64,000 bases of DNA. Source: a virus (lineage: Duplodnaviria; Heunggongvirae; Uroviricota; Caudoviricetes). The stretch lies in the IMG/VR virus record IMGVR_UViG_3300031993_000049; one strand, 5' to 3'. This document shows, piece by piece, positions 4,382-55,527 of this stretch (position 1 is its first letter; every line of letters begins with the position of its first letter). A program made the position numbers and the translations under genes. The notes under the pieces are model-generated. The model made no database searches and was not told the DNA's origin. It saw nothing but the letters and a program-made list of their open reading frames with translations.

Positions 4382-4765
4382 ATGAAAAAAATAATGAAAA
4401 AACCTAACGACTTGAGTCGTTTAACTGTTAGTTATTTTACTGGCCAAGATGTAAAAAACAAATTTTATAGTCGGCAAATCGGATATGGTTCTTTTACGGT
4501 AGATAATATTCCACGGGAACTCAAAGACAAGAAGTGGGTTCCTGAGGATAATAAAAAATATGAATGTCATTGGTATTATACTAATCCAGCAGACCCTGCA
4601 GACCCAGGGGAAGATGTTTTGATATACATCGAAGAAATAGAAGAAGACGTAGCCGATAAAATGCGAACTGACTATATATCGAAAATAGATAAAATAGTAA
4701 ACAAATTATCATTAGATGATTTAAACGACTTATTAAAAGTTTTAAAAAGAAGATATTATATATGA
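4382..4765 (+). CDS. hypothetical protein
   Basis: Co-oriented ORF. Confidence 0.7.
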   Translation: MKKIMKKPNDLSRLTVSYFTGQDVKNKFYSRQIGYGSFTVDNIPRELKDKKWVPEDNKKYECHWYYTNPADPADPGEDVLIYIEEIEEDVADKMRTDYISKIDKIVNKLSLDDLNDLLKVLKRRYYI

Positions 4766-5268
4766 GAATAGCATTAGTAGCACACGATAGTAGAAAAAAG
4801 GAACTCGTTGAATGGGTTACCTATAATATGGAAGAGTTGAAGAAACACGAACTCTTCGCAACAGGTACAACTGGTAGATTACTCAAAGAAATTGAAGGTA
4901 AAATTAGATGGGAACCAACAGGAGGAAATGGTGATGGTTCAATATGGAGTAGATATTGCGAATATCCACTAGAGGATAAAGTTACCTGTTTGAAATCTGG
5001 ACCGCTTGGTGGCGATCAGGAAATTGGTGCAATGATTGCAGAAGGAAAACTAGATGTACTTATTTTCTTCTGTGATAACCTTATTCAACAAGGGCACCAA
5101 AATGATGTATCTGCATTAACAAGACTTGCGTCGCTTTATAATATTGCATTTGCAACAAACAGAACCACTGCCGATATGATCCTTACTTCATCATTATTCA
5201 ACAATGAAAAATACAAGAAGGTTATGCCTAATTGTATCCAGGAATACATTTCACGAAGTGTTTTCTAA
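4762..5268 (+). CDS. mgsA: methylglyoxal synthase
   Basis: IALVAHDSRK, HELFATGTTG, SGPLGGDQEIGAMIAEGKLDVLIFFCD, ATNRTTAD: near-complete match to MgsA motifs including the catalytic HD and GGDQ. One ~25-aa insertion. Confidence 0.8.
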   Translation: MRIALVAHDSRKKELVEWVTYNMEELKKHELFATGTTGRLLKEIEGKIRWEPTGGNGDGSIWSRYCEYPLEDKVTCLKSGPLGGDQEIGAMIAEGKLDVLIFFCDNLIQQGHQNDVSALTRLASLYNIAFATNRTTADMILTSSLFNNEKYKKVMPNCIQEYISRSVF

Positions 5269-5633: not shown

Positions 5634-5783
5634 CAGGAAAGAAGTATGAGGTATATGATAAAAGCGGTGGGTTACTGGCTTATGGCTGGCACTATGCACC
5701 TATTTCGTACAAAGCCCTGGAGAAGGAACTCAAGAGTAAAAACCCAGAGTCGGGTAAAATAATAATTGCAAAAATTTAAAGTT

Positions 5784-6845
5784 ATGGCAGTAAAAAGCGA
5801 TATATTAACAAACGACAACAAACACCTTTCCATTATGGAAAATGGTGACGGTATTGAAGTCGATAAATCTCTGTTGAAATACTCATCGATCAAAAAAGAA
5901 ATTGATGAGTTTAGAAAAGAACATTCTGGTGGTAATGCGTCTGAGTTCACTATTAACAATTCATTCGTAACGCCAGACGGAGTTAGTGACGCTTTCAAGG
6001 AGAAAGAGGAAATTAAGAATCTGGCTAAGAACTATGAGATTATCAAAGACAGTGATGTACACGGTGTAAACCTGTTTGTTAGCAAACACATTGCTAATAA
6101 TTTATTCTCATCTTTCAATGAGTTTGTTGTAACTAACAACGTTACCTGGAACGGTATTGGTAACGTTAACAACGCTCGTAATGTTGCGGACCAGAATGAG
6201 AAACCTGGTTTCTTCAAACGCCTTGCTGACCTGTTTAACTTTAAGTCAAAGGAAGCCGAGGAAATTTATACCTTGGACGTACTTGATTTCTTCTCCAATG
6301 TAAAGGGTCTCACCAAGGAGAATAAGGACCTGTATGTTAACCGTCTTACTGGTTACATTGTTGCTCTGAAGAACTGTGACGTTTCTGGCCAGGTAGCATT
6401 GAAGGAGAAACTTCTTCGTGATATGGTTGTTAACAAGTACGAGTCAGTTCTTTATGCTAACGGTATTTATTATGTAGTTACAGAAGATCAAATTGTTAAC
6501 TTCGTAAAGAAAACCCAGAAAGGTGTTCGTCTTACTTATGTTAAGAATTATCTTCGTGTAATTCCGCCTGAGGTGGTAGAGAAGATGAACAAGGCTAACG
6601 AACTTGAAATCTTTGATAATTACGCAATTCTGCATTATGATCCAGAAGCAAAGAGTTACGCTGAGACTATCAAAGAAACACAAAAACGTAGGGATCCTAT
6701 TCTATTTGGCTTGATTCGTGGGTCAAATAAACTATATTATATTACAGACTGGATTGACGAATACTGCGACTTGACGTTGGATAAATTCGTTGAGACTCTG
6801 CAGATTGACAAAGAAAATTTGAAGATTGAAAACATTAAAATGTAA
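5784..6845 (+). CDS. hypothetical protein (353 aa)
   Basis: ORF-track start 5766 is TTG. First in-frame ATG (MAVKSD) used. GC higher than flanks. Confidence 0.75.
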   Translation: MAVKSDILTNDNKHLSIMENGDGIEVDKSLLKYSSIKKEIDEFRKEHSGGNASEFTINNSFVTPDGVSDAFKEKEEIKNLAKNYEIIKDSDVHGVNLFVSKHIANNLFSSFNEFVVTNNVTWNGIGNVNNARNVADQNEKPGFFKRLADLFNFKSKEAEEIYTLDVLDFFSNVKGLTKENKDLYVNRLTGYIVALKNCDVSGQVALKEKLLRDMVVNKYESVLYANGIYYVVTEDQIVNFVKKTQKGVRLTYVKNYLRVIPPEVVEKMNKANELEIFDNYAILHYDPEAKSYAETIKETQKRRDPILFGLIRGSNKLYYITDWIDEYCDLTLDKFVETLQIDKENLKIENIKM

Positions 6846-10024: not shown

Positions 10025-10927
10025 ATGAAGTGTGAAGGAAAAATATTGATCATATTACAAGGTCCTCCTTGTTCTGGAAAGTCCACATGGGCAAAGGAAT
10101 ATCAGGAAAAGTATCCTGATACATTGGTTGCCAATCGTGATACTATTCGTTATACGCTTGGCGAAGGTAAGTATACAATGGACAGAGAAGATGAGGTCAC
10201 TGAGATTGAAATGGCCCAGGTAAAGGGTGCAATGGGTGCTGGTAGAACTGTTGTTATTGACGACACTAACCTTAATCCTAAGTATCTTAAGCCTTGGTTA
10301 GACCTTGCTGAAGAAAAAGGCTATGAGGTAAGATATGAGAAATTGTACATACCTTATGGCGAGGCAATGGAACGTTCTAAGAAGCGTAAGGAAGAAGGTG
10401 GTCTTTACATATCAAAAGATGTAATGCAGCGTTTCTATAAGAAATACTTCAAGGAAGAATTCGAGAAGGAAATGACTGATTATCGTGTATTCAATATGAA
10501 TAAGTATGACGATAAATTACCTAATTGTGTTATATGCGATTTAGACGGTACTATTGCTATGCATACGGGCCGAACACCATTCGAGTGGGACAGATTATTC
10601 GAAGACCAAATTGATTGGCGTATGAAGGATATTTTGCGTGCCCTGGCTGCTACTGGTGCTGAGATTATATTCTTGACTGGTAGACAGGAATCTGTAAGAG
10701 AGAAGACAGAGGAATGGCTTACAGCCAATTTCGGTTGGAAACATCAGTTGATTATGCGTCCAGACAGAGAGTTTGGTAAGGGTAATGCTGTTAAGAAGGA
10801 ACTATACGAAAAGTACGTTAAGGGTAAGTATAATGTAATCTGTGTGTTTGATGACGCAAATTATTGCGTTGATATGTGGCGCAATGAGGGATTGTTAACA
10901 TTACAGGTTCAAGATTCAGATTATTAA
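10025..10927 (+). CDS. pnk: bifunctional polynucleotide 5'-kinase / 3'-phosphatase (T4 Pnk-like)
   Basis: N-terminal Walker A: ILQGPPCSGKSTWAKEY. C-terminal HAD motif I: VICDLDGTIAMHTG. Late VFDDANY acidic motif. Confidence 0.85.
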   Translation: MKCEGKILIILQGPPCSGKSTWAKEYQEKYPDTLVANRDTIRYTLGEGKYTMDREDEVTEIEMAQVKGAMGAGRTVVIDDTNLNPKYLKPWLDLAEEKGYEVRYEKLYIPYGEAMERSKKRKEEGGLYISKDVMQRFYKKYFKEEFEKEMTDYRVFNMNKYDDKLPNCVICDLDGTIAMHTGRTPFEWDRLFEDQIDWRMKDILRALAATGAEIIFLTGRQESVREKTEEWLTANFGWKHQLIMRPDREFGKGNAVKKELYEKYVKGKYNVICVFDDANYCVDMWRNEGLLTLQVQDSDY

Positions 10928-10929
10928 TT

Positions 10930-11118
10930 ATGGGTAAGATTATTACATTGTCATTGTTCATCATTGTAACGGTTATTTTTGTGGTTGATATTGCTTCAAT
11001 TGTTTATAATTTATATCTCTCCGCAAAATATAAACATAATTACGAAAAACAGTTGTGGCCAGAATTGATATTACTGATTTTCTGGTCCATATTATTATCA
11101 ATTTTAATTGTGTATTAA
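10930..11118 (+). CDS. small membrane protein
   Basis: Hydrophobic ORF. Confidence 0.5.
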   Translation: MGKIITLSLFIIVTVIFVVDIASIVYNLYLSAKYKHNYEKQLWPELILLIFWSILLSILIVY

Positions 11119-11586
11119 ATGGAAAAAGAAGAATTACTGAAAACAGTGAACGGCAAAAACGTCACGTGTGCCGTTGTTATGATTGATAAGGAAGGTTCAA
11201 TCCTGGGATGTCACCCGACCAGCAGATCTGAGGTCTATGACTTCCCTAAGGGTTGTGCTGGATTTGCTGAGAAGGATGAGGATGCCGCAGTACGGGAACT
11301 ACAGGAAGAAACCAGTATTCTATTAACGCCTAATGAGTTGGCTCGACTTGTTGATGGTGGTATACACCCACATACTAAAGAGAAACTTATTCACATTTTT
11401 ATATTGAGGGTGGATGAATTACCAGATCCAGAATCATTGGTGTGTGAGTCATTCTATGAATACAAAGGGAAGACATATCCTGAGGTAGATAGATATGCAA
11501 TTATTACTAGGGATAAGAGAAATCTGTTCTTTGGGTGCCTGCAGGACAAATTTGAAATAATTGACAGTATAGCAAGTCTGATGTAA
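11119..11586 (+). CDS. NUDIX hydrolase
   Basis: Nudix box GCAGFAEKDEDAAVRELQEETSI (Gx5Ex5-7REUxEExxU). Confidence 0.75.
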   Translation: MEKEELLKTVNGKNVTCAVVMIDKEGSILGCHPTSRSEVYDFPKGCAGFAEKDEDAAVRELQEETSILLTPNELARLVDGGIHPHTKEKLIHIFILRVDELPDPESLVCESFYEYKGKTYPEVDRYAIITRDKRNLFFGCLQDKFEIIDSIASLM

Positions 11587-11590
11587 TATT

Positions 11591-11818
11591 ATGAATAAGT
11601 ATTTATTGTGTTTCATTATAATATATGCAATAGGCTGGATTGCGTTTACGATTGGATTTCTAGTAATATGTAATGATGCTAGACCAAAAAATCGTACTTT
11701 ATGGAATTATGTACCACGTTCAATGTTGTTCTCGCTTATATGGCCATACATTCTTTATGAATATATTGCTCTTTGGGTAATACCTGAAATTAAAGAAAAA
11801 AGAAAGAAAAAAGTATGA
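11591..11818 (+). CDS. small membrane protein
   Basis: Hydrophobic ORF. Confidence 0.55.
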   Translation: MNKYLLCFIIIYAIGWIAFTIGFLVICNDARPKNRTLWNYVPRSMLFSLIWPYILYEYIALWVIPEIKEKRKKKV

Positions 11819-12021
11819 AAAATGATCCAAAATATAACAAATGGCCATTTTGGAGTTATTGTGAAGACTGTATATATTTAAGAGAAGATTCATTATCTTG
11901 TGAAGAATATGGTTATTATAATTCTTGTGGTAATAGTGAATCTGAAAATTATTATGGCAGAGAAGATGATTTAAGTATACTCTATCCAGGAGAAAAATGT
12001 CCAGATAAAGAAATTGAATAA
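11815..12021 (+). CDS. Cys-rich small protein
   Basis: Co-oriented ORF. Confidence 0.5.
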   Translation: MKNDPKYNKWPFWSYCEDCIYLREDSLSCEEYGYYNSCGNSESENYYGREDDLSILYPGEKCPDKEIE

Positions 12022-12024
12022 AGT

Positions 12025-12426
12025 ATGAGAAAGAAAAAAGAAGAAGTAACAGAAGAGTTGGTACAGGAAGTTAAGTATCCAACAGTAGAAGAATTGGTAA
12101 TTGAGTGTATTAAACACGACATACCAGTAAACGGTGTTGACTATAATGGTAGAAACCTGGAGTATGAGATTGGCGGTTTCTCAAAGAGTGGTACTGGAAA
12201 ACTTACCACTGATGAGGACGGTAATACAATCTTAGTTACCAGATATAATACAGTAAACGAAGTAAGATCCTTTGAGGATATTGCTGACGTTGCATATGAT
12301 TGGTATTATAACTACCGAGACAGAGAACCATTTACACAGCCAGATTATAACTGGGCACCAATATTTGTTGAAATGGGTCTAATTGAGGAACGAATTGTTA
12401 AGACCTACGTCCCTGTAGTTCAATGA
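12025..12426 (+). CDS. hypothetical protein
   Basis: Co-oriented ORF. Confidence 0.7.
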   Translation: MRKKKEEVTEELVQEVKYPTVEELVIECIKHDIPVNGVDYNGRNLEYEIGGFSKSGTGKLTTDEDGNTILVTRYNTVNEVRSFEDIADVAYDWYYNYRDREPFTQPDYNWAPIFVEMGLIEERIVKTYVPVVQ

Positions 12427-12480
12427 ATAGAACGTGGGTTTCCTAAACCTAAGATCTGCGTTTGATTCGCAGCAGGGGTA
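12409..12480 (+). tRNA. candidate degenerate tRNA-Arg(CCU)-like cloverleaf
   Basis: Hand-folded 72-nt cloverleaf. Acceptor GTCCCTG/CAGGGGT (two terminal G.U). D-arm GTTC-AATGAATA-GAAC. Anticodon arm TGGGT-TTCCTAA-ACCTA with U33 and CCT at 34-36. T-arm CTGCG-TTTGATT-CGCAG. Lacks G18G19 and C56. Overlaps the last 18 nt of the upstream CDS. Confidence 0.3.
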
Positions 12481-12487
12481 CTTAAAA

Positions 12488-12513
12488 AGAGAGGATTAAT
12501 TCCTCTTTTTTTT
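12488..12513 (+). terminator. intrinsic terminator (AGAGGA-TTAAT-TCCTCT plus T8)
   Basis: Perfect 6-8 bp stem followed by a T-run. Immediately followed by TGTATAATTAC. Confidence 0.65.
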
Positions 12514-12545
12514 GTATAATTACTACACTTTCTTTCTGTTCGGAT

Positions 12546-12566
12546 CAGTTTGGCACGGTATTTGTA
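12546..12566 (+). promoter_or_regulatory. conserved 21-mer CAGTTTGGCACGGTATTTGTA (sigma-54-like TGGCACG-N4-TTGTA)
   Basis: One of five intergenic copies. Spacing matches -24 GG / -12 (GC to GT). Confidence 0.45.
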
Positions 12567-12679
12567 AGATAAAAATTGAGGCGCATAGTGAACAACTCAC
12601 TCTCGCAGTTTTGAAATTAAAAAAAAATGTGTTACCTTTGCGGTACGAAATTGAAAAAACAGATTAAAATTTTAGTAAT

Positions 12680-12931
12680 ATGAAAAAAGTAAAAACAGAG
12701 TATGTTGCAATTGTTAATGGCGATAAATACGTTATTTTTTCGCCAGATATTTCTAGAATTAATCCACATACCGTTTTGGGTTGCGTATTGTATGAGGGTA
12801 GTGCTCATAGTTCTTTGTATTACAACGAGGGTAACTATTCAAAAGAAGAACTAGAAAGTGCTGGTTATGGTATTGTCGATGAAATAGTTAAAGTTGACAC
12901 ATATACAGAAGAAACAACAATTTATAAATAA
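12680..12931 (+). CDS. hypothetical protein
   Basis: First ORF downstream of the conserved leader. Confidence 0.65.
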   Translation: MKKVKTEYVAIVNGDKYVIFSPDISRINPHTVLGCVLYEGSAHSSLYYNEGNYSKEELESAGYGIVDEIVKVDTYTEETTIYK

Positions 12932-12959
12932 TCTTTAATATAGAATTAAATTTATTGTT

Positions 12960-13775
12960 ATGGAAGAGAAATTTTTAACTAGAGAAATTGTACAACAAAA
13001 CGGCTGGGACGAACTAGAGGTTATAACAGCCGACATGCTTGATGGGTATACGGAAATTGGATATGCTGCTTTCGGTAATTGTTACAATATTACTTCAATT
13101 ACTATTCCAAATAGCGTAACATATATTGGCAATTCGGCTTTCGCTGGTTGCGACAGTCTTACATCTGTTATTGTTCCAAACAGCGTCATAACCATTGGTG
13201 CGAGTGCTTTTAGGGGTTGTTCAAATCTTAAATCAATTAATATTCCAGATAGTACAAAAGAAATTGGAGAATATGCTTTCCATAGATGCAAAAGTCTTAC
13301 TTCAATTACCATTCCAGATAGTGTAACACGTATGGAAAGCGGCGCTTTCGATGGTTGCTCCAGCCTTACATCTGTCACTATTCCCAACAGTGTAACATAC
13401 ATGGGATATTGGGTTTTCAACCATTGTTCATTCAAAACCCCAAAAAGATATGATGAACAAGGTCGTTTAATTGCCTATAAGGGATTTAATGCCGACATGT
13501 CATGTCGTGGTTTTCAATATGAGGAGGGTGAAACTTATGAAATGGATGGTGAGATTAAATTATGCGAACGAGGCTTTCATGCGTGCACAAACCCACTAGA
13601 TTGTTTGAATTTCTATGGTGGTGAAATATGCAAAGACGTTGTATACCACGAGGTTTACCTTGAAGATGTATCTGATGAGAGTGGTGATGATTCAAAGGTA
13701 GTTGCAAGGAAAATCACCATTGGGCACGAAATAACGCTATCCGAAATGGCAGATATTGCAAGTGGTAAAAAATAA
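12960..13775 (+). CDS. BspA-type leucine-rich-repeat protein with C-terminal Cys-containing domain
   Basis: Five-plus tandem ~22-aa repeats: ITSITIPNSVTYIGNSAFAGCDSLTSV / IVPNSVITIGASAFRGCSNLKSI etc. Confidence 0.8.
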   Translation: MEEKFLTREIVQQNGWDELEVITADMLDGYTEIGYAAFGNCYNITSITIPNSVTYIGNSAFAGCDSLTSVIVPNSVITIGASAFRGCSNLKSINIPDSTKEIGEYAFHRCKSLTSITIPDSVTRMESGAFDGCSSLTSVTIPNSVTYMGYWVFNHCSFKTPKRYDEQGRLIAYKGFNADMSCRGFQYEEGETYEMDGEIKLCERGFHACTNPLDCLNFYGGEICKDVVYHEVYLEDVSDESGDDSKVVARKITIGHEITLSEMADIASGKK

Positions 13776-13802
13776 AATTGTGTAATTACGATGTGCCCTT
13801 AT

Positions 13803-13823
13803 CAGTTTGGCACGGTATTTGTA
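13803..13823 (+). promoter_or_regulatory. conserved 21-mer CAGTTTGGCACGGTATTTGTA (copy 2)
   Basis: Exact copy. Followed by GTAC-loop-GTAC hairpin. Confidence 0.45.
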
Positions 13824-13897
13824 CTGAAAAAAGTACGACCGTATTTATTAGGTCTGTAAAGTAAAAGTAGAATATTAACTAAAACAAATAAAATAAA

Positions 13898-14317
13898 ATG
13901 AAAAGAATTAAGTATTGGAAAGTCGTTAAAGACGGAGTTGACATTGAAACCGCTAACAATATGCTTAAAGCACAGGCGGTTGAAGGACATTTGTATGACA
14001 GATTGGCCGTGCGCCTGAAAGGTGATGGTAACATCTACGAATACGGTACTGACCTTATGAGTCGCAACTTTACCGCTAAGGTTGTACTTCACGGAACCTG
14101 GGAGATACTGATCCCTGATGACGGAGAAGAGGAACGTCTGGATAAACTGCGTAAGATTGTTAAGGATGAAAATTTCCTTACGGTAAATCACGAGGCTATT
14201 GACAATATGAATATCGATGCTATCTGGAAAAAGGTCGTCGATCGTATTGACAGTAATAAAGCCAAGTACGTGGTTATCAAGGCTATTGTCGAAAACAAAT
14301 TGTATAAAGACAAGTAA
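13898..14317 (+). CDS. hypothetical protein
   Basis: + strand ORF. The 200-aa antisense ORF 13802-14404 is rejected. Confidence 0.7.
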   Translation: MKRIKYWKVVKDGVDIETANNMLKAQAVEGHLYDRLAVRLKGDGNIYEYGTDLMSRNFTAKVVLHGTWEILIPDDGEEERLDKLRKIVKDENFLTVNHEAIDNMNIDAIWKKVVDRIDSNKAKYVVIKAIVENKLYKDK

Positions 14318-19341: not shown

Positions 19342-21555
19342 ATGGATTACGAGAAAGCATATAAAGAATTAGAAACAAAAGCGAAGTCATTTATTGCTAG
19401 ATGGGAAGGCATCGAAGCAATTAATTCTGAACTTGCATTGAAAGAACTAAAGGATATGTTCAATGAATTCACAGAGAGTGAGGATGAGAAAATAAGGAAA
19501 GAACTGATTTACTTTTTTCAAAATAGAAGAAAGCAACAAGAAGAAGATAAGTACTATCAAGGCGTAGAGATTCTTGACAGATGGATTTCTTGGCTTGAAA
19601 AGCAAGGTGAACAGAAACCTATCTCTAAATTTAAGGTCGGAGACCGCATATACGACAAAAGAGATAGTTACAACAGAAATGTTATTAGAGAGGTAGGTAA
19701 GGATTACTACATAAATGCTTTTGGCCAGAAGATGGATATGGCTTATACCAATGCCAACTTTGAATTTCTAGAGCATTTAGAGGACGACCATATCGATAGT
19801 AAGCCTGCCGAGTGGAGTAAAGAGGATGAAGAAATATGTCAAGGAATAATAAACACACTTGAAGGCTTGTACGAATCTGCATCAAGCGACACGGTTAAGG
19901 CTTTATATGCTGCGAAAGCAGATTGGCTCAAACACCTCAAACCGAAACCGAGACCAGAGTGGAGTGAAGAGGATGAAAGTGTAGATACTAGATTTGCGTT
20001 TTACACATACAAAGACGAACCTAATGTATTGTATTTGTCAAATGTTTTTGTTGAAGAATCTAGTCGAAACGAAGGTAAAGGTACCGAAATACTCAAAGTT
20101 GCCGAGCAAGTCGCTAAATCACTCAATAAGACTACAATTCGTCTGAAAGTTAAAAAGGAATCTGAAGCAAACGAGTGGTATTATAAGCATGGGTATTCAC
20201 TTATACAATGTGAAGATGAATATAATTGGCTTGAAAAGAAAATAGAGCAGAAGCCTATTATGATTCAATGGACTGGAGATAATCTCAAAGACGTAACTGA
20301 GTTTACTGGTTATTCTCCTAAATTCAGCGAGTGGTTTAAGAATTGGGAAGAATATGAAACTTATGTTCATTCTCACAACAATATCTTTAAGATGTTTAAT
20401 GAAGATGGTTCTCACTACGAAGTTCCTGTCGGTGCATGGATTGTAAAAACTCCAGACGGACATAATGTTGCTTCAAAAGCAACTTATATTCAGAAGCCTG
20501 CTTCCAAGGTTGAACCAATGTTTAAGGTTGGTGATTGGATTATATCTGACAAGGCACATGAGGATTATCGTATCTGTAAAATTATTGAGGTTGGTAACGG
20601 AAATTATAAAATAGAGTCGATACACGGATATTGTGGTTATAACGAATATAAGTATTTTGACAATATATATAGACTTTGGACCATTGAGGATGCAAAACCA
20701 GGTGATGTACTTGTAGATAATCATCCGTTTATTTTTGAAAAAGTTGATACTTCTGGCCACTGTTATGCTTATTGCGGTTTAAATCCGTTTGATGAGTTTA
20801 TGATAGAGTCTGAGGGAGAATCGGGAGAATGGACGTGGCATCCTAATGTACATCCTGCAACAAATGAACAGATTAACTTGTTATTTCAGAAAATGGAAGA
20901 AGCAGGTTATGAGTGGGATTCCGAAAAGTTAAAGTTGGTCAAAATTGATCAAGAAGAAGAGGACACCCCAAAGTTTAAGGTAAAAAAAGGTGAATGGTAC
21001 GTTTGTACTAATACTTTTGTATTAAAAGGTAAAATTATTGCAATTAAGGGACAAACATATCAATCAAAACAACAAGATAATACTATAACTTGTGAAGATA
21101 ATTGTCTTTTTATTGATAGACATGATGGTAAGGCATCAGACTATTTTCGTCTTTGGACTATCCAAGACGCAAAGCCTGGTGATATCCTTACTGACAAAGA
21201 TGGTTGTACCTTCATCTTTAGAGAATTAGACGCTGATTTTGACGAAACTATGGCTATGGCTTATTGCGGCATTAACAGTGATGGTTATTTTATTCTTTGC
21301 GAAAAAGGTAGAGTTTGGACAGATCCAGAAGAGGTATATCCAGCAGATTCAGACGATCGTAATCATTTGTTTGACAAAATGAGGGACGCTGGTTATGAAT
21401 GGGATTCCACAAAACTTGAGTTAAAAGTGGTCAAACAGGAACCACCAGTTGTAAAAAATGAAAATAAAGAACGTTTTGAACGTATTGTTGGATTTCTAAG
21501 ATATAAAGGGTTTGAAGATGATGCTGACTGGCTCGAATCATCGAAATTTCATTAA
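19342..21555 (+). CDS. large multidomain protein: central GNAT-like acetyltransferase segment plus internally duplicated ~95-aa C-terminal modules
   Basis: FAFYTYKDEPNVLYLSNVFVEESSRNEGKGTEILKV is GNAT-like. Repeats: YRLWTIEDAKPGDVLVD..YAYCGLN..LFQKMEEAGYEWDSEKLKLV versus FRLWTIQDAKPGDILTD..MAYCGIN..LFDKMRDAGYEWDSTKLELK. Three KFKVGD motifs. Confidence 0.8.
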   Translation: MDYEKAYKELETKAKSFIARWEGIEAINSELALKELKDMFNEFTESEDEKIRKELIYFFQNRRKQQEEDKYYQGVEILDRWISWLEKQGEQKPISKFKVGDRIYDKRDSYNRNVIREVGKDYYINAFGQKMDMAYTNANFEFLEHLEDDHIDSKPAEWSKEDEEICQGIINTLEGLYESASSDTVKALYAAKADWLKHLKPKPRPEWSEEDESVDTRFAFYTYKDEPNVLYLSNVFVEESSRNEGKGTEILKVAEQVAKSLNKTTIRLKVKKESEANEWYYKHGYSLIQCEDEYNWLEKKIEQKPIMIQWTGDNLKDVTEFTGYSPKFSEWFKNWEEYETYVHSHNNIFKMFNEDGSHYEVPVGAWIVKTPDGHNVASKATYIQKPASKVEPMFKVGDWIISDKAHEDYRICKIIEVGNGNYKIESIHGYCGYNEYKYFDNIYRLWTIEDAKPGDVLVDNHPFIFEKVDTSGHCYAYCGLNPFDEFMIESEGESGEWTWHPNVHPATNEQINLLFQKMEEAGYEWDSEKLKLVKIDQEEEDTPKFKVKKGEWYVCTNTFVLKGKIIAIKGQTYQSKQQDNTITCEDNCLFIDRHDGKASDYFRLWTIQDAKPGDILTDKDGCTFIFRELDADFDETMAMAYCGINSDGYFILCEKGRVWTDPEEVYPADSDDRNHLFDKMRDAGYEWDSTKLELKVVKQEPPVVKNENKERFERIVGFLRYKGFEDDADWLESSKFH

Positions 21556-26371: not shown

Positions 26372-26821
26372 ATGATACATGAAAAAATCAATGGGCTGAT
26401 CATGGAATCAATGAAAGCCCGCAACGATATACGTACGGAATCACTCCGTGCAATCAAGACCGCTTTCCTTAACTGGAAAACGGAAAAAGAAAACGTTGGC
26501 AAGGAACCTGACGAGGCTTCAGAGTTGCAGATGCTTAGGAAACTCGTTAAACAGCGCCAGGAGTCAATTGAAATGTACAATGCTGCTGGCAGAACCGATT
26601 TGGCTGAAGCAGAGGCCGCACAGATTAACGTTATCAAAGAATTTCTTCCTGCTGAAGCAACAGAGGAAGACGTTCTTAAGGCTTTCAACGAGGTTCTTAC
26701 TGATCTGGACATTGAGCCAGTAAAGAAGAATATGGGTGCCTTTGTAAAGAACATCAAGACTATCTTGCCTAACGCAGACGGTAAGTTGGTAGCAAGTGTT
26801 GTACAAAAACAATTGCATTAA
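26372..26821 (+). CDS. YqeY / GatB C-terminal-domain-like protein
   Basis: Length and motifs (RTESLRAIKTAF, LVKQRQESIEMYNAAGRTDLAEAEAAQINVIKEFLP, KNMGAFVK) match the YqeY family end to end. Confidence 0.85.
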   Translation: MIHEKINGLIMESMKARNDIRTESLRAIKTAFLNWKTEKENVGKEPDEASELQMLRKLVKQRQESIEMYNAAGRTDLAEAEAAQINVIKEFLPAEATEEDVLKAFNEVLTDLDIEPVKKNMGAFVKNIKTILPNADGKLVASVVQKQLH

Positions 26822-29355: not shown

Positions 29356-29922
29356 ATGACAGTAATATACGGAAATCGTGGAGATATGGACACCCTTATG
29401 CTACCTAGCATATGGGAGAGATTAGACAATGTAAATGTTGTTGAAATCGGTCTTAGAACGTTTCACTTCGAAGATAGAGTAGCAGAGGCAATAGCCAATG
29501 AGGATGATACTCTTATTCTTTGCGGCCACGGAACGTCCTGGGGCCTTCTACACCCCAATTTCCATACTGGACAGTATATTATTCACGAGAACAATTATCG
29601 TGACATACACGCAAGAAATTTGATATGTGTATGGTGCCATGCTGCTGACTTTGCTGAGAGATATCACGTAAACGGTTTTTTTAGTTCAATGTTCATATCG
29701 AACGTTAATGAAGCACAAGAGCACCTTGGTAATGGTACAGACCTTACACAAGATCAGATTGGAGACTCGGAATTGATATTCTGCAGAAGACTTAATGCAC
29801 TTCTTAGGGATGGTACACCACTTAACGAGTGGGTGCCTACTTTGAAGAGTTTAATGAATGAAAATAATATGGTGGAGAGATATAATTATAATGGTTTAAA
29901 ATTTTTTGAGAATTATGAATGA
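29356..29922 (+). CDS. hypothetical protein
   Basis: Co-oriented ORF. Confidence 0.7.
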   Translation: MTVIYGNRGDMDTLMLPSIWERLDNVNVVEIGLRTFHFEDRVAEAIANEDDTLILCGHGTSWGLLHPNFHTGQYIIHENNYRDIHARNLICVWCHAADFAERYHVNGFFSSMFISNVNEAQEHLGNGTDLTQDQIGDSELIFCRRLNALLRDGTPLNEWVPTLKSLMNENNMVERYNYNGLKFFENYE

Positions 29923-31384
29923 GATTTTTACACAAAGTGAAAACATCAAGCACGAGTACTGTTGTACTATCGTGCGCATCGGCGAGATCAAGCCAATCGA
30001 GGGCAGGGATCGAATTGTACAGACACTGGTAAACGGTTTGTCTATGGTAATTCGTAAGGACCAGGTAAAAGAGGGTGACCTTATGATTTACGCGATGAAC
30101 GAAACACAGTTGTCCGAGAAGTTCCTTGCTGCTAATAACCTGTATGCTATCGACTGTTACGAAAAGAACAGTAATGCCCCAGAGGTGGGTCAATTACTAT
30201 TCGACGGTAAGAACGATGAGGCAAAGGAACACGTTGGTTTCTTCAATAAGTATGGCCGAGTGAAATTGATTAGACTTGGTGGTGTACCTTCATTCGGATA
30301 CCTCTTCACTGTTAACGAACTTGCAAAGGTATATCCTGAGGTTCTTAATGTTAACCTTGAGGAACTGGTAGACACCGACTTCGATACCGTATGCGGTGAG
30401 GAATTTGTAAAGGTATATATGCCACCTGTAAAGGAAGCAACACCTCGTGGTTCAAAGGAAGCAAAAATGCAGCGTAAACTCGCTAAGTTTGATCGTATGC
30501 TTCCAGGCCAGTTTGCTTTCCACTATGAGACAAAGCAACTCGCAAGGTACATTTCTTACATCAAGCCTACCGACGTGGTAACCATTTCTGTTAAGATGGA
30601 CGGTACTTCATTTATTGTTGGTAATATCCTTGTTAAGTTCCCTAAGTGGGATGGTTTCTACAAGAAGATATTCCCATATCTTCCTAAGTTCCTACAATTC
30701 ACTCGCGAGGATTATGATATTGTTTATTCTTCACGTAAGGTGATTATCAATAAGGATATTAATCCTAACAAGGGTGAAGGATGGGATGGTGGTTCTGTAC
30801 AGAAGGCCATTACTGTAGTTGCCGATCTTATCAGGGACTATGTTCCTAAGGATATGACTATCTACGGTGAGATTGTTGGTTATTACAATCAGACTAACAA
30901 GGCTATCCAAACTCGTGGTGGTAAGGATTATGACTATGGTTGCCCAGTGGGTACCAACAGGTTTATGCCTTATCGAATTGTTACAAAGAACGAGGATGGT
31001 ACAAATCACGAATGGAACGTTTGTGAGGTTTACGATTGGACTATCAATTTCATGAAGGAACATGAGGACCTTGCTAAGTACGTACAACCAATCGTTATCG
31101 TTTACCACGGTACGCTTGCTGACCTTTATCCACAACTTGACGTTGAGAATCATTGGCACGAGAATGTTCTTGAGGCTATGAAGAACGACAAGAAGACACT
31201 TGGTCTTGAGGTATATGAGCCAATGTGTAAGGATAAGGTATGGCGTGAAGGTGTAGTACTCCGTGTTGACGACGATATGGTTAACGAAGCCTTCAAGTTG
31301 AAGAGTGTTAAATACTCTGAGAAGGAACGTGAGGATTACGACAAGGGTGTCATTGACCAGGAAGCAATGGAAGGATACCTTTAA
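29915..31384 (+). CDS. ATP-dependent RNA ligase-like nucleotidyltransferase with N-terminal OB-fold (tRNA-binding-domain-like) extension
   Basis: Motif I VKMDGTS (KxDG), motif III IYGEIVGYY, motif IV REGVVLRV, motif V FKLKSVKY. N-terminal EYCCTIVRIGEIKPIEGRDRIVQTLVNG resembles an OB domain. Track start 29906 is TTG; ATG used. Confidence 0.75.
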   Translation: MNEIFTQSENIKHEYCCTIVRIGEIKPIEGRDRIVQTLVNGLSMVIRKDQVKEGDLMIYAMNETQLSEKFLAANNLYAIDCYEKNSNAPEVGQLLFDGKNDEAKEHVGFFNKYGRVKLIRLGGVPSFGYLFTVNELAKVYPEVLNVNLEELVDTDFDTVCGEEFVKVYMPPVKEATPRGSKEAKMQRKLAKFDRMLPGQFAFHYETKQLARYISYIKPTDVVTISVKMDGTSFIVGNILVKFPKWDGFYKKIFPYLPKFLQFTREDYDIVYSSRKVIINKDINPNKGEGWDGGSVQKAITVVADLIRDYVPKDMTIYGEIVGYYNQTNKAIQTRGGKDYDYGCPVGTNRFMPYRIVTKNEDGTNHEWNVCEVYDWTINFMKEHEDLAKYVQPIVIVYHGTLADLYPQLDVENHWHENVLEAMKNDKKTLGLEVYEPMCKDKVWREGVVLRVDDDMVNEAFKLKSVKYSEKEREDYDKGVIDQEAMEGYL

Positions 31385-41563: not shown

Positions 41564-41935
41564 ATGACAAAGACAGCAGTAATGCAATCGGATTTTAACA
41601 TCACTGGAGAAATAGGTGGTGTTAAATATAAATATATAAAGATTCCATGGGTTGAACATCTAGAGATATATAAGTATTATCATGATAGTCAATCTGCGGA
41701 AAGAATTAATGAACGTGGTGGTTTTGGTGTAAGAGAAGCCGCTTATATGGGTTATAATCCTCTAGTTATTTGGGTAATTTATGATTACAGCGAAAAAGAT
41801 AGTGATTGGACAAAAGTAGCACTCCTTTTTGATAAAGACTCTGATTTTAGATCATACCGTTACAGGGTTTTAACTGAAGAAGAATACAAAAGTCTTGATA
41901 TATTTGAAAAAATTAAAGATACGTATGATAATTGA
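41564..41935 (+). CDS. hypothetical protein
   Basis: Co-oriented ORF. Confidence 0.65.
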   Translation: MTKTAVMQSDFNITGEIGGVKYKYIKIPWVEHLEIYKYYHDSQSAERINERGGFGVREAAYMGYNPLVIWVIYDYSEKDSDWTKVALLFDKDSDFRSYRYRVLTEEEYKSLDIFEKIKDTYDN

Positions 41936-42353
41936 AAATGAAAATTATGTTAGTTTTGAAACAGCAAAACTATTGAAAGATAATGGATTTGATTGGTCTT
42001 GCCGAGCAAGATACGGAAGTGCTGGTTCTTTCTGTTATGAAAAATATCCGATTGAAGCAAGTGGATGTGAAATGCACAATTGTATACTTTGTCCAACTCT
42101 TCAAATGGCTAAGAAATGGTTAGAAGAAGTTCACAATCTTTTCATTACTATTGAAATAAAAGGTGATCCACGAAAAGAGGATTTCATTTATTATAAATGG
42201 TCTGTTGCAAAATTTTGTTGTGTTAAAATTGAAAGAATTGATAACGGTTTAAACACACCAGAAGATTATTGGCTTGCACCTGAGGAAGAGGATGAAAAAC
42301 CTGAATATGCGTGTGAAGCAGCAATTAAATATTGTCTTGAAAATTTGATTTGA
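41925..42353 (+). CDS. Family-B paralog (YVSFETAKLLKDNGFD ... PTLQMAKKWL ... ACEAAIKYCLENLI)
   Basis: Shares N-terminus with 2328. Identical C-terminal 14 aa with 42350. Confidence 0.7.
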   Translation: MIIENENYVSFETAKLLKDNGFDWSCRARYGSAGSFCYEKYPIEASGCEMHNCILCPTLQMAKKWLEEVHNLFITIEIKGDPRKEDFIYYKWSVAKFCCVKIERIDNGLNTPEDYWLAPEEEDEKPEYACEAAIKYCLENLI

Positions 42354-42775
42354 TTATGATAGAAGAAGCATACGTTAGTTTTGAAGTGGCAAAACTTCTG
42401 AAAGAGAAGGGTTTTGATGTTGATACTCCAACAAGATATGCTATTGAAAAGGTAACAGAATCTTGGTATGATGATTATCGGGAAAGAGTTGTTAAATTCG
42501 ATTGGGATAGCGGTTATTTTTTAGGCATAAATGATATAAAACACGATATTAGTGGAGATACTATATCTGCTCCTACCCAACAGATGGCAATGCAATGGTT
42601 GAGAAAAATGGGTTGGTTTATTCATATTGATGTCATTCGAGAGGTGTCCTGCTGGACAGCAGATATTCAAGATATAAAGAATGATGTTGCCATTTATGCG
42701 GTTGAAAAAGAATTTCCCAACTATGAACAAGCATGTGAAGCAGCAATTAAATATTGCCTTGAAAATTTGATCTAA
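42350..42775 (+). CDS. Family-B paralog (YVSFEVAKLLKEKGFD ... ACEAAIKYCLENLI)
   Basis: Tandem with 41925. Confidence 0.7.
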   Translation: MIMIEEAYVSFEVAKLLKEKGFDVDTPTRYAIEKVTESWYDDYRERVVKFDWDSGYFLGINDIKHDISGDTISAPTQQMAMQWLRKMGWFIHIDVIREVSCWTADIQDIKNDVAIYAVEKEFPNYEQACEAAIKYCLENLI

Positions 42776-42777
42776 TT

Positions 42778-42975
42778 ATGACTAAGGAAGATAGAGTAGA
42801 ATTACAAAAGGCTGTATCTAATTTTCTTTACTCGTTTTCGAGCGAGGAAACACGAATGTATGCGCCGTGGGCATTTGATTCAACTGGTTTTCAAAAGCCA
42901 CTTTCAATTGCTGAATTTGCGGCTACATGGATGGAAAGACGTTTGTTAAACAAAATTAAAAATAAAATAAAATGA
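42778..42975 (+). CDS. hypothetical protein
   Basis: Co-oriented ORF. Confidence 0.55.
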   Translation: MTKEDRVELQKAVSNFLYSFSSEETRMYAPWAFDSTGFQKPLSIAEFAATWMERRLLNKIKNKIK

Positions 42976-43796
42976 AATTTAAAAGTCTAGAAGAAAAGTG
43001 TTTGTATTACAGAGGTTTAACTGATTATAAACTTCTGCCTAACAGTAATATTCTTGTCATGCTTGACGGTAAAAACTTTAGTCGTCTCATCAAGAATAAC
43101 TTTAAGAAACCGTTTGATGATGATTTTATCAGAATGATGAACAACACGGCTAAGTTCCTGTGTGAAAACGTACAGGGATGTAAGTTTGCATATGTTCAGT
43201 CTGATGAGATCTCATTGCTCATTACCGATTATGACACACCAGAGACCGACTTGCTGTTTGGTGGTAGACTTTGCAAGATTGAATCTATTCTTGCTTCCCT
43301 GGCTACGTCAGAGTTCAATCGCCAATTCATTAAGTATCACTTGTTTGAGAAGAGAGAAAATTGGTCTGGTGTTGGTTTCGCAGGCCTTTCTGATCAACTT
43401 GATAAAATGAAGATGGCTCAGTTTGACTGCAAGGCTTGGACTGTACCTAATTTTAACGATGCATTTGCTTGGTTCCTATATCGTCAGATTGACTGTATCC
43501 GTAACTCAAAGCAGCAGACTGCTCAAACCTATGTTCCACACAAAGAACTGGTTAAAAAAGATACTGATCAACAAATTGCAATTTGTAGAGAAAAAACCGA
43601 TATTGATTGGAATGATTTTGCCAACCAATACAAATATGGTAGATTTGTTTACAAGGTAGAAAAGGAACTTACTACTACTCTTCCTGACGGTAAGGAAATC
43701 ACTTATTTCAGAAACAAATTCGAGGCTGTACCAGCGTTTGAATTGACGAAGGAAGGAAATAAAGACAAGTTTATCAATCTTATTTTCGAATCATGA
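42972..43796 (+). CDS. Thg1-like protein (tRNA-His guanylyltransferase family 3'-5' nucleotidyltransferase)
   Basis: ILVMLDGKNFSRL (RLDGRNF), FKKPFDDDFIRMMNNTAKFL, AYVQSDEISLLI (YGQSDEYSF), ILASLATSEF: matches the Thg1 core motifs. Confidence 0.85.
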   Translation: MKFKSLEEKCLYYRGLTDYKLLPNSNILVMLDGKNFSRLIKNNFKKPFDDDFIRMMNNTAKFLCENVQGCKFAYVQSDEISLLITDYDTPETDLLFGGRLCKIESILASLATSEFNRQFIKYHLFEKRENWSGVGFAGLSDQLDKMKMAQFDCKAWTVPNFNDAFAWFLYRQIDCIRNSKQQTAQTYVPHKELVKKDTDQQIAICREKTDIDWNDFANQYKYGRFVYKVEKELTTTLPDGKEITYFRNKFEAVPAFELTKEGNKDKFINLIFES

Positions 43797-50301: not shown

Positions 50302-50736
50302 ATGAAAACAAGTGAACTTCAAAACGAAACCAGTTCTTTGATAAAAGAACATAGCAAATTGTATAAATTAATTGACGAAAAAGAAGAAGCCATTACAGTT
50401 AAAGCAAGGGAATTACTAAATGAATTGCGTAAACTGGATAATTGGGAGGTAATGATTGACGAGTGTAAAGACCACTATGAACGATTTCCTGACGAATTCT
50501 TTGATTGGTGTCATGTAGAATTTGAAAAAAATAAGGTTTATTTTGTGAAGAATTATAGTGATGACGATGACGATTATTATGTTCTTACTATTGATTTGTC
50601 TAAGCCTTTAGAAGATCAAATAAAGGAAAAACAAGAAAAGATAAAAAAAGACGAGGAAAAAGAAAAAGAAAAAATTAAGGCAAAAGAACTTGCCGAATTA
50701 AACCGTTTAAAAGAAAAATATGAAACATTACGATAG
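50302..50736 (+). CDS. hypothetical coiled-coil protein
   Basis: Co-oriented ORF. Confidence 0.6.
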   Translation: MKTSELQNETSSLIKEHSKLYKLIDEKEEAITVKARELLNELRKLDNWEVMIDECKDHYERFPDEFFDWCHVEFEKNKVYFVKNYSDDDDDYYVLTIDLSKPLEDQIKEKQEKIKKDEEKEKEKIKAKELAELNRLKEKYETLR

Positions 50737-53324: not shown

Positions 53325-53611
53325 CAAAGACATTTAGACAATTAGAACGAGGTGATAAGATTTTAGTTAAAAACATAACAAAACATGTACCTTGCAATGT
53401 TACAATAGACGACCATCATTACATAACGGAAGTTGTTAGTGAAGATAAAACAATGACTATTGACACATTCTCTCATTATGATAATGGTCTTGGAGGTAAG
53501 TTGGTAGAGTTTTATGCATATCCTTATTTAGGTGTAACTCTCAGATTTGAAATGGCTGTAGACGACTTAGATAAAACAGAAACAGAAAAATATAAAATAT
53601 TAGACATATGA
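53297..53611 (+). CDS. hypothetical protein
   Basis: Co-oriented ORF. True start may be the internal ATG at 53321. Confidence 0.5.
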   Translation: MAIKKRNHMTKTFRQLERGDKILVKNITKHVPCNVTIDDHHYITEVVSEDKTMTIDTFSHYDNGLGGKLVEFYAYPYLGVTLRFEMAVDDLDKTETEKYKILDI

Positions 53612-54006: not shown

Positions 54007-54008
54007 TT

Positions 54009-54413: not shown

Positions 54414-54415
54414 TT

Positions 54416-54850: not shown

Positions 54851-54852
54851 CT

Positions 54853-55302: not shown

Positions 55303-55313
55303 CTTTTATTGAT

Positions 55314-55514: not shown

Positions 55515-55527
55515 ATAATAGATAGAT

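Follow-up and report, generated by a model that had tools for sequence, protein, structure and literature searches.

Methylglyoxal synthase (MGS) is an odd enzyme, as it spends a glycolytic intermediate on a poison, and the reason for its retention in bacteria, phosphate recycling or relief of metabolic overflow, is still debated. A candidate gene for such an enzyme is present in a virus of the class Caudoviricetes (IMG/VR record IMGVR_UViG_3300031993_000049), of which a stretch of 64,000 nucleotides, hereafter the window, was analyzed. The locus raises the question of whether the ORF is a genuine MGS, from where the gene was derived and what a phage would gain by carrying it.

Identification of the ORF as a methylglyoxal synthase

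The initial annotation had aligned the ORF to MgsA over its full length, including the HD dyad and the GGDQ motif, and this alignment was borne out by family models, solved structures and fold prediction. The NCBIfam methylglyoxal synthase equivalog NF003559 matched residues 1–158 with 171.9 bits (cutoff 84; E 6.3e-51), and Pfam PF02142 was matched at 5.5e-12. The older model TIGR00160 scored 138.2 bits, just under its cutoff of 146.9, because an insertion divides the match into two stretches; the HMMER matches of the ORF were found at query residues 2–45 and 73–159, with ∼27 residues unaligned between them. Sequence matches in the PDB included the MGS of Thermotoga maritima (1VMD, 4.2e-41) and of Escherichia coli (1B93, 6.5e-30). 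The AF2 model of the 168-aa protein had a pLDDT of 83.9 and a pTM of 0.76, and ranks 1–26 of the Foldseek search of the PDB with this model were all MGS (E 2.5e-12 to 2.4e-9, TM up to 0.87). The best solved-structure match was T. maritima TM1185, an enzyme from a cellular thermophile devoid of the hairpin described below, with 49% sequence identity, a fold E of 2.5e-12 and TM of 0.71/0.76.

The MGS-like domains of CarB and PurH share the α/β domain of the PF02142 superfamily but sit inside large multidomain proteins, whereas the ORF encodes a stand-alone protein. The CarB domain appeared in the Foldseek PDB search at E 1.3e-4 with ∼18% identity, ∼10^8-fold worse than MgsA, and PurH at 0.07. 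As these fold matches are far weaker and the MgsA equivalog cutoff is passed, assignment to the CarB/PurH regulatory domains was ruled out, and the same search answers, in favor of MgsA, the condition of the initial annotation that a best structural match to CarB or PurH would refute it. It is highly probable that the ORF encodes an active enzyme and that the genome carrying it belongs to a phage. The features of the locus are listed in Table 1.

Table 1. Positions in the window of the MGS gene, its upstream neighbor and the conserved or inserted segments of the encoded protein.
Feature	Position	Strand	Basis
Upstream ORF, 127 aa, no assigned function; its stop TGA overlaps the MGS start ATG (ATGA)	4382..4765	+	ORF list
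Complete MGS ORF, 168 aa plus stop (ATG...TAA)	4762..5268	+	Family model, PDB matches, AF2 fold
H8-D9-S-R-K12, equivalent to E. coli H19, D20, K23 (active-site His/Asp, phosphate-binding Lys)	4783..4797	+	Alignment
T34-G-T-T-G38, equivalent to the E. coli T45–G49 phosphate-binding loop	4861..4875	+	Alignment; residue roles from PMC7843640
24-aa insertion, residues 45–68, EGKIRWEPTGGNGDGSIWSRYCEY, predicted β-hairpin between helix 2 and strand 3	4894..4965	+	Multiple alignment, AF2
S79-G-P-L-G-G-D85-Q86, equivalent to E. coli S65-G66-P67 and catalytic base D71	4996..5019	+	Alignment
D105-N-L-I-Q-Q-G-H112-Q-N-D115, equivalent to E. coli D91...H98...D101; bears the clade signature FFCDNL / GHQND	5074..5106	+	Alignment
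R165, near-invariant C-terminal Arg, probably corresponding to E. coli R150 (salt bridge between subunits, cooperativity)	5254..5256	+	Putative equivalence; alignment offset by one residue

Conservation of catalytic and phosphate-binding residues

E. coli MgsA (1B93, 1EGH) has the same fold as the window MGS and ∼48% identity to it over aligned columns. All of the E. coli residues H19, D20, K23, T45, T47, T48, S65, G66, P67, D71, D91, H98, D101, and R107 were found to be conserved, the last as R121, and the GGDQ motif corresponds to G83-G84-D85-Q86, matching E. coli G69-G70-D71-Q72. The two enzymes differ in that E. coli MgsA is without the hairpin insertion and the window MGS is without the 11-residue N-terminal extension. 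In addition, the E. coli segment FFWDPLNAVPHDPD is replaced by FFCDNLIQQGHQND (P92N, D99Q, P100N), and the C-terminal tail differs; owing to these differences, the allosteric behavior of the E. coli enzyme may not transfer. Asn occupies the position of E. coli Pro92 throughout the viral and Bacteroidales clade. Since Pro92 of E. coli MgsA is implicated in allostery, MGS may be regulated in this clade otherwise than in E. coli. For the Arg150–Asp20 link of the MgsA homo-hexamer, the window MGS has D9 and, as a putative counterpart of Arg150, R165, the alignment at R150 being offset by one.

The roles of Lys23, Thr45–Gly49, Ser65, and Gly66–Pro67 (E. coli numbering) in binding phosphate and DHAP have been described (PMC7843640). 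In the alignment of 69 viral and 80 cellular MGS copies, H8 and K12 were invariant, and D9 was present in 65/69 viral copies. Overall, the catalytic and phosphate-binding residues, all of which are present in the window copy, were kept in 65–69 of the 69 viral and 79–80 of the 80 cellular copies. In four related viral copies D9N and G80E occur together, and these copies may lack activity.

Hairpin insertion between helix 2 and strand 3

The initial annotation had also described a Gly-rich insertion of ∼25 aa. Its length was found to be 24 aa by multiple alignment and the term Gly-rich is fair for the window copy only (5/24 residues), but the insertion is peculiar neither to this ORF nor to phages. 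The two strands of the hairpin were placed by AF2 at residues 48–56 and 59–66. Chromosomal MGS of Bacteroidales (Segatella, Prevotella, and Paludibacteraceae) carry at the same site a short, acidic hairpin of 6–16 aa, usually 10 or 15, whereas the insertion spans 13–39 aa in all viral representatives bar one (7 aa), the median hairpin length being ∼20 aa in phage copies vs. ∼10 aa in cellular ones. By this comparison the insertion is an enlargement of a hairpin that the chromosomal enzymes already have, and thus no phage innovation in kind.

Among viral pairs, the dN/dS of the hairpin was mostly ∼0.4–1.8 (one close pair, 0.24) and that of the core was ∼0.1, with nonsynonymous evolution of the hairpin 10–30 times faster than that of the core. 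For example, the loci L033 and L042 differ by a dN of 1.05 and a dS of 0.64 in the hairpin, and by a dN of 0.035 and a dS of 0.31 in the core. A diversity-generating retroelement was considered as the source of this variability and rejected, as the copies vary in length (7–39 aa) and not merely at fixed positions.

The active site of MGS is formed by the C-terminal ends of strands 1–4. By topology, the hairpin is located in the crossover from helix 2 to strand 3 and would sit beside the N-terminus of strand 3, facing away from the active site; a change of chemistry is therefore unlikely. The hairpin may instead affect oligomerization or the binding of a partner, or its changes may be nearly neutral.

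Host-lineage origin and selection

Over residues 1–167, the window MGS is 59–67% identical to chromosomal enzymes of Segatella bryantii, Prevotella, and Paludibacteraceae. These enzymes (S. bryantii DSM 11371, L094, 10001–10474; Prevotella sp. P6B1; Xylanibacter ruminicola KHT3; Paludibacteraceae MAGs) share with it the motifs LIFFCDNL, GHQND, and LTRLASLYN, the catalytic residues and the site of insertion. Their genes are located among housekeeping genes at 41–57% GC, that of S. bryantii being placed between an ammonium transporter and FtsZ/GreA, whereas the neighbors of the phage gene are small phage ORFs, at 35% GC. Core identity was 71% among the viral copies, close to the 75% found among the cellular ones, and about 69–77% between viral and host MGS.

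Viral and Bacteroidales MGS were separated from other MGS in 85/100 NJ bootstraps. Monophyly of the viral copies was recovered in 0/100, which lends no support to one ancient acquisition, the alignment of ∼140 columns being too short to separate single from multiple transfers. The median dN/dS among viral pairs was 0.115, and the MGS core is under purifying selection on phage genomes. The GC content of MGS (36.9%) is close to that of the window (35.1%), and the gene has been ameliorated to each phage genome. These comparisons indicate that the gene is host-derived, from a Bacteroidales lineage, and selected on the phage; host homology and selection, by which an AMG is recognized, are both found.

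Proposed role of the phage enzyme in infection

Phage AMGs of central carbon and phosphate metabolism include cyanophage talC, cp12, zwf/gnd, pstS, and phoH. These are likewise host-derived metabolic enzymes carried by phages and presumably re-route host carbon and phosphate; unlike their products, the product of MGS is a toxic electrophile. Pi is a strong inhibitor of MGS and DHAP an activator, and the enzyme works at high sugar-phosphate and low Pi levels (PMC3412212). The release of Pi for GAPDH is one of the theories of MGS function that have been reviewed (PMC12291648). Accumulation of methylglyoxal is reported for Prevotella ruminicola (Russell 1993) and Bacteroides forsythus (Maiden 2004), both as cited in PMC3412212/PMC12291648. 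For the phage copy, the initial annotation had proposed a redirection of triose phosphate flux, relief of phosphate stress or deliberate damage to host macromolecules, all of which stand as hypotheses.

The reading preferred here, to which we assign a probability of roughly 0.45, is that a host-derived MGS is active in infected cells and taps a triose-phosphate “overflow valve” with release of Pi; activity in vivo, the timing of expression and the physiological purpose are what we infer. The phage is a large one of the gut or rumen, and an ancestor of it would have captured the gene from the Bacteroidales host lineage, the gene being retained since. Presumably expressed during infection, the phage enzyme would add capacity to the MGS bypass of the host. 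As host growth halts while sugar catabolism goes on and phage DNA synthesis takes up phosphate, triose phosphates would accumulate and free Pi would drop, and these are the conditions in which MGS would turn active. Conversion of DHAP to methylglyoxal and Pi could then sustain glycolysis at the GAPDH step as well as nucleotide synthesis, and the toxic methylglyoxal would be tolerated, or might even be of use, where the cell is bound to die anyway. Against this explanation, the host already has its own mgsA, the copies with D9N and G80E are possibly inactive, and no virion gene was seen in the ∼78 kb examined. No phosphate-related, glycolytic or methylglyoxal-detoxifying gene was a regular companion of MGS across the phage loci; the genomic context therefore favors no particular purpose.

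Methylglyoxal itself could be the aim, although we regard this as unlikely. The electrophile would shut down macromolecular synthesis or membrane function of the host, or poison co-infecting competitors, and the hairpin would escape a restraining host factor. At sub-millimolar to millimolar levels, methylglyoxal inhibits growth and kills (PMC3412212), and its accumulation in the Bacteroidales relatives named above would fit as well. The fast evolution of the hairpin and its greater length in phage copies than in cellular ones would also suit such a role, but a dN/dS near 1 over ∼21 codons fits a neutral loop equally. The phosphate-binding residues and the C-terminal Arg are kept, suggesting a regulated enzyme and not a constitutively toxic one; moreover, no inhibitor or partner of MGS is known in Bacteroidales, and the phage loci have no immunity or detoxification gene beside MGS. 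Somewhat less probable still is the form of this idea in which methylglyoxal is a phage effector and the hairpin an arms-race interface: the compound would arrest host functions, glycate or disable proteins of defense or translation, or exclude competing phages, and the hairpin would evade a putative host control of MGS. Bacteroidales are not known to have a glutathione-dependent glyoxalase system.

There is a slim chance that MGS is a nearly neutral passenger, perhaps acquired repeatedly from hosts, in a hyperplastic accessory region. The neighbors of MGS differ between divergent phage loci, mobile-element genes occur nearby in some of them (L002/L003, L005) and in the window, and the viral copies are not monophyletic, all of which a passenger would explain. 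The strong purifying selection, the amelioration of GC to each phage genome and a core as conserved as that of the cellular enzymes speak against it, as does the presence of the gene on contigs widely different in GC (25–41%) and size.

It is very improbable that the protein serves as a non-enzymatic decoy or poison subunit, co-assembling with the host MGS hexamer or titrating its regulator by means of the hairpin. Mixed oligomers would be allowed by the core identity to host MGS, the hairpin is unlike the host version, and a protein regulator of MGS has a precedent in Crh of Bacillus subtilis (PMC12291648). However, nearly all copies keep the catalytic residues, which are needless for a non-catalytic role, and when every core position of the alignment of 69 viral and 80 cellular copies was searched for a systematic viral-vs.-cellular difference, none was found.

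The presence of MGS on phage genomes bears on the debate over MGS in general. Many large contigs from phages of dominant gut and rumen bacteria keep MGS by purifying selection, and this constitutes a natural experiment: a virus gains nothing from the long-term health of the cell, and its benefit, whether Pi release, flux relief or toxicity, therefore isolates one of the functions proposed for MGS. With this gene, the Bacteroidales jumbo phages abundant in human and ruminant guts gain a metabolic lever that had gone unremarked; in these guts, the production of methylglyoxal has been tied to the viability of bacteria and possibly to the physiology of the host. The phage copies also provide a ready set of naturally varied hairpins on an enzyme scaffold that is constant otherwise.

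Distribution among viruses and representation in databases

MGS was detected on at least 68 IMG/VR contigs (10–412 kb; 25–41% GC) and on many metagenome contigs. The flanks of the IMG/VR loci encode ThyX, NAD-dependent ligase, primase, helicase, and anaerobic RNR, and the closest homologue of the window MGS (77% identity) is located on a contig of 362 kb that also encodes ThyX, Thg1, and NADAR. A conserved partner beside MGS, such as a glyoxalase, an aldo-keto reductase or phosphate genes, was sought in the phage loci and none was found. Recurrent neighbors (YqeY, ThyX, metallophosphoesterases, and small ORFs of no assigned function) were observed only within closely related phages, and the immediate neighbors are not conserved between divergent loci.

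In the initial annotation a phage copy of MGS was considered unusual. This holds for curated phage resources: PHROGs is without a family for the ORF, the fold search of BFVD with the MGS model returned nothing at E ≤ 1e-3, and a verified phage copy was not found in the GenBank phage collection. It does not hold in the sense of a one-off, as the gene is conserved across many large gut and rumen phage contigs. The 18 tblastn matches in the GenBank phage collection were rejected as known phage MGS, all being unannotated draft or unverified records, and the best of them, MT835965, is a bacterial fragment with DnaA, lipid A acyltransferase, RNR, and GH77. The wide spread of phage MGS, its absence from PHROGs, BFVD, and verified GenBank phages, and the cellular Bacteroidales counterpart of the hairpin are points that the present analysis adds. 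In the literature searched, mgsA as a viral AMG was found only in environmental virome studies, for example in passing for a scaffold of the Lake Baikal virome, on which an annotation pipeline had flagged it (PMC8066274); none of the literature found treats phage MGS functionally or comparatively, and the word “methylglyoxal” was absent from the searched main texts of gut jumbo-phage papers.

Phage contig and local gene setting

The gene is carried on contig k141_2048293 (ERZ27257203), which is 253,946 bp long. The ORFs are short (by median length) and 140 of 155 (90%) are co-directional, and 51 PHROG families were matched, among them PNKP, RNA ligase, RNase H, dUTPase, and Thg1. The contig has an RNA-repair toolkit, and its RNA ligase is nearest to that of Prevotella Lak megaphages. 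Just beyond the window are NAD synthase and NAPRTase, an NAD+ salvage module that is likewise present in NAD-jumbo phages of Bacteroidota (PMC11662467). The phage setting of the MGS gene is thus well supported, though capsid, portal, and terminase genes were not seen in the ∼78 kb of contig examined. That absence, and the fact that mislabeling occurs, as in the best GenBank match, would suit a bacterial, mis-assembled or other extrachromosomal contig, but this is the most improbable of the readings in view of a gene architecture and content typical of large phages, a GC of 35% vs. 41–57% in cellular loci with the homologue, 68 relatives classed as viral in IMG/VR, the closest homologue on its 362-kb contig and the occurrence of the identical MGS protein on two contigs.

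Megablast of window positions 1–25000 against GenBank phages gave no match; hence, the phage has no close cultured relative. MGS is embedded in a long co-directional array of small accessory genes, and a homologue of the upstream ORF adjoins MGS in one other locus (L007). No + strand terminator was predicted within ∼1.6 kb downstream of MGS, and a sigma-70 promoter scan, run without a Bacteroidota promoter model, returned 17 sites vs. 14.5 expected. A transposase-like ORF is located directly downstream of MGS in the window; elsewhere, a TnpB/OrfB gene lies 270 bp downstream of MGS in L002/L003, and a transposase is present in L005.

Identity and Predicted Fold of the Protein

A phage-borne methylglyoxal synthase (MGS) is a real and well-supported feature of this DNA. 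The start codon of its gene overlaps the stop codon of the upstream ORF (ATGA, 4762-4765), which embeds it in a co-directional gene array. The NCBIfam equivalog for methylglyoxal synthase, NF003559, matched residues 1-158 (E 6.3e-51, 171.9 bits, cutoff 84), Pfam PF02142 matched as well, and comparison with the sequences of solved MGS structures gave E values of 4.2e-41 for 1vmd and 6.5e-30 for the E. coli enzyme (1b93). The TIGR00160 score of 138.2 fell just under the cutoff of 146.9 because the insertion described below splits the match in two. The full-length MgsA ORF with an HD dyad and GGDQ proposed in the initial annotation was thus borne out, the motifs being located at H8-D9 and G83-Q86. 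In the alignment, K12, T34/T36/T37 and S79-G80-P81 corresponded to E. coli K23, T45/47/48 and S65-G66-P67, and D85, D105, H112, D115 and R121 to D71, D91, H98, D101 and R107; the roles of the catalytic and phosphate-binding residues of MGS have been summarised (PMC7843640).

The AlphaFold2 model (26 homologues) showed a mean pLDDT of 83.9 and a pTM of 0.76. Foldseek against the PDB returned MGS at ranks 1-26 (E 2.5e-12 to 2.4e-9), followed by the MGS-like domain of CarB (1.3e-4) and by PurH (0.07), so that the CarB/PurH fold raised initially as the alternative matched far more weakly than MgsA. The insertion of ~25 aa noted at the same time was also found: EGKIRWEPTGGNGDGSIWSRYCEY occupies residues 45-68 (24 aa) in the multiple alignment, and HMMER left about 27 aa unaligned at this site. 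It was predicted to form a β-hairpin with strands 48-56 and 59-66, which topology would place in the crossover from helix 2 to strand 3, where strand 3 has its N-terminal end. Strands 1-4 carry the active-site residues of MGS at their C-terminal ends, so the hairpin probably sits on the opposite face.

Relationship to Bacteroidales MGS

Phage MGS stems from the Bacteroidales host lineage. In 185,579 species genomes, a pattern scan identified chromosomal MGS in Bacteroidales with 59-67% identity over residues 1-167, in Segatella bryantii DSM 11371 (3.5-Mb sequence, the gene flanked by an ammonium transporter and FtsZ/GreA), Prevotella sp. P6B1, Xylanibacter ruminicola KHT3, Prevotella lacticifex and many MAGs of Prevotellaceae, Bacteroidaceae and Paludibacteraceae. 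The clade signatures FFCDNL, GHQND and LTRLASLYN are common to these proteins and the phage copies. The cellular proteins also carry an insertion at the same site, but a short, acidic one (6-16 aa, typically 10 or 15), compared with 13-39 aa (median about 20; 7 aa in one representative) in viruses. The insertion thus characterises the lineage and is not phage-specific; it is the Bacteroidales MGS hairpin, enlarged and highly variable in phages, with no novelty in kind.

In NJ analysis, viral and Bacteroidales MGS together split off from the remaining MGS in 85 of 100 bootstrap replicates; monophyly of the viral set, or of the cellular set, was recovered in none of the 100, and the trees do not fix the number of transfers. 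Identity outside the hairpin (core) was 71% among viral, 75% among cellular and 69% between viral and cellular copies, and no core column in the alignment of 69 viral and 80 cellular copies distinguished the two. Locus context divided them cleanly: viral loci showed a GC content of 25-41%, a median ORF of about 90-190 aa (305 aa in one) and a strand bias mostly of 0.75-0.95, whereas cellular loci showed 38-57% GC (mostly >41%), genes that were longer as a rule and, in most cases, spread over both strands. A few contigs assigned to MAGs, e.g., L111, look like mis-binned phage. The GC content of MGS follows each phage genome (here 36.9%, against 35.1% for the window).

A tight monophyletic viral subgroup (100/100 bootstraps; contigs of about 90-180 kb, about 30% GC) came mostly from one IMG/VR source, and its working label, "human-gut group," is not based on sample origin. 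In this group, dN/dS was mostly about 0.4-1.8 in the hairpin (0.24 in one close pair) and near 0.1 in the core; between loci L033 and L042, dN reached 1.05 in the hairpin and 0.035 in the core. The hairpin has thus evolved under selection that is either relaxed or diversifying, and with about 21 codons the two cannot be told apart.

Distribution Among Phages and Previous Records

Searching 5.8 billion proteins gave 7,101 matches at E ≤ 1e-10, the best 120 of which all shared 65-78% identity with the window protein and had lengths of 153-199 aa; many of these lie on contigs of 250-412 kb. The closest relative (77% identity) adjoins ThyX, Thg1, NADAR and DHH genes on a 362-kb contig, and another lies on a 398-kb scaffold. 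Conservation of MGS extends widely across large phage contigs from gut and rumen; the gene occurs in at least 68 IMG/VR loci (contigs of 10-412 kb), flanked by genes for thymidylate synthase, NAD-dependent ligase, NAD synthetase, primase, helicase, anaerobic RNR and tRNA nucleotidyltransferase; scattered accessory genes are common to these loci and the window. The contigs resemble Jug phages (360-402 kb, Bacteroides/Phocaeicola; PMC12880540) in size and in a Bacteroidales host, the latter inferred here from MGS phylogeny. No conserved neighbour pointing to one purpose was found among the phage loci compared, which the nearby mobile-element genes (see the table) may explain.

Phage MGS is essentially undescribed. 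PHROGs v4 contained no family for it, and BFVD gave no fold match at E ≤ 1e-3. In full-text searches, the only papers to list mgsA among viral AMGs were a few environmental virome studies, a Lake Baikal virome paper mentioning it in passing (PMC8066274), and the gut jumbo-phage papers searched do not contain "methylglyoxal" in their main texts. The 18 tblastn matches in the GenBank phage collection, none to Lak megaphages, were all to records that are unannotated, unverified or in draft form, and they were rejected as precedents. MT835965.1 (L153, "UNVERIFIED: Bacteriophage sp."), the best of them, is a bacterial chromosome fragment with DnaA, lipid A acyltransferase, class I RNR, GH77 and MGS; such mislabelled records can give false precedents for phage AMGs.

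Possible Role During Infection

Host-derived metabolic enzymes are a known kind of phage gene, and it is very probable that this one is an active MGS on a phage. From DHAP, MGS forms methylglyoxal and Pi; Pi inhibits it strongly, DHAP activates it cooperatively, and it works when sugar phosphates build up and Pi drops (PMC3412212). Its proposed roles are to relieve overflow and to recycle Pi for GAPDH (PMC12291648). An infected cell that no longer grows, still ferments sugar and makes many copies of a genome ≥250 kb long resembles this state. In the preferred reading, the phage enzyme would strengthen the valve, freeing Pi and keeping glycolysis and nucleotide synthesis running, with methylglyoxal toxicity either tolerated or an added benefit. 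We give this whole chain a tentative probability of roughly 0.45. Methylglyoxal is reported, as cited in later papers, to accumulate in Prevotella ruminicola and Bacteroides forsythus (Russell, 1993; Maiden, 2004; via PMC3412212, PMC12291648); its deliberate production by the phage as a toxin is rather unlikely. The median dN/dS among viral MGS pairs was 0.115, and a near-neutral passenger gene is improbable. Four of the 69 phage copies, e.g., L064 and L072, carry D9N (E. coli D20) and G80E (E. coli G66), changes in the active site and phosphate loop of otherwise conserved proteins; these copies may be inactivated or repurposed. A non-catalytic decoy is a very improbable reading of the window protein. 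Why a virus carries a toxin-producing bypass enzyme is now directly testable.

Genomic Setting

The window spans positions 59,394-123,393 of a 253,946-bp metagenomic contig. That this contig is not a phage is hardly credible: 140 of the 155 greedy ORFs, the majority short, lie on the + strand, and the 111 ORFs of ≥75 aa matched 51 PHROG (E ≤ 1e-5) and 34 Pfam (E ≤ 0.001) families with no cellular housekeeping gene among them, although no capsid, portal or terminase gene was found in the roughly 78 kb of contig examined. RNase H, dUTPase, nucleoside deoxyribosyltransferase, NUDIX and three metallophosphoesterases were also matched.

Features of the window and of compared loci
Feature	Location	Remarks
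MGS ORF	4762..5268 (+)	ATG to TAA, 168 aa
Transposase-like ORF (phrog_10081)	5766-6845	about 500 bp downstream of MGS
T4-type polynucleotide kinase/phosphatase	10025-10927	
tRNA-Arg(CCT)	12409-12481	only tRNA in window
YqeY	26372-26821	
RNA ligases (two)	29906-31384, 50720-51397	
Thg1-family tRNA-His guanylyltransferase	42972-43796	
BspA-type leucine-rich-repeat/DUF7666 protein	12960-13775	up to 55% identity to Paludibacteraceae MAG-locus sequences
737-aa protein	19342-21555	weak GNAT acetyltransferase stretch (residues about 219-295), rest without annotation
Five tandem paralogous ORFs	53608-55887	about 120-150 aa, 43-56% identical to ORF 231-632
Second small paralog family	2328-2684, 41895-42353, 42350-42775	
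GmrSD_N protein (modified-DNA restriction endonuclease N-terminal domain)	60764-61384	206 aa
NAD synthase, nicotinate phosphoribosyltransferase (NAPRTase), NUDIX hydrolase in a row	L155 (window contig past window end) 10615-14291	about 0-3.7 kb past position 64000
Tad2-like (anti-Thoeris) ORF	L001 791-1003	70 aa, weak Pfam match, about 4.4 kb upstream of position 1
IS605 OrfB/TnpB (Cas12f-like) gene	L002 10768-11937	270 bp downstream of MGS in L002/L003
Transposase	L005 20-1054	about 9 kb upstream of MGS

The extensive RNA/tRNA repair or maintenance toolkit suggests an answer to host anticodon nucleases; the nearest relatives of the large RNA ligase were Prevotella Lak megaphage ligases (30-34% identity). 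On sequence similarity, the BspA-type protein appears to be a second link to the host lineage besides MGS. The NAD+ synthesis genes just beyond the window end correspond in kind to those of gut "NAD-jumbo phages," most of which have been linked to Bacteroidota (PMC11662467); they are followed by a GH43 gene and an F420-ligase-like gene. Together with the Tad2-like ORF, the NAD+ synthesis genes hint that the phage counters host immunity based on NAD depletion. No family annotation was found for the larger paralog family, and its homologues are present in the related phage loci L018, L021 and L002.
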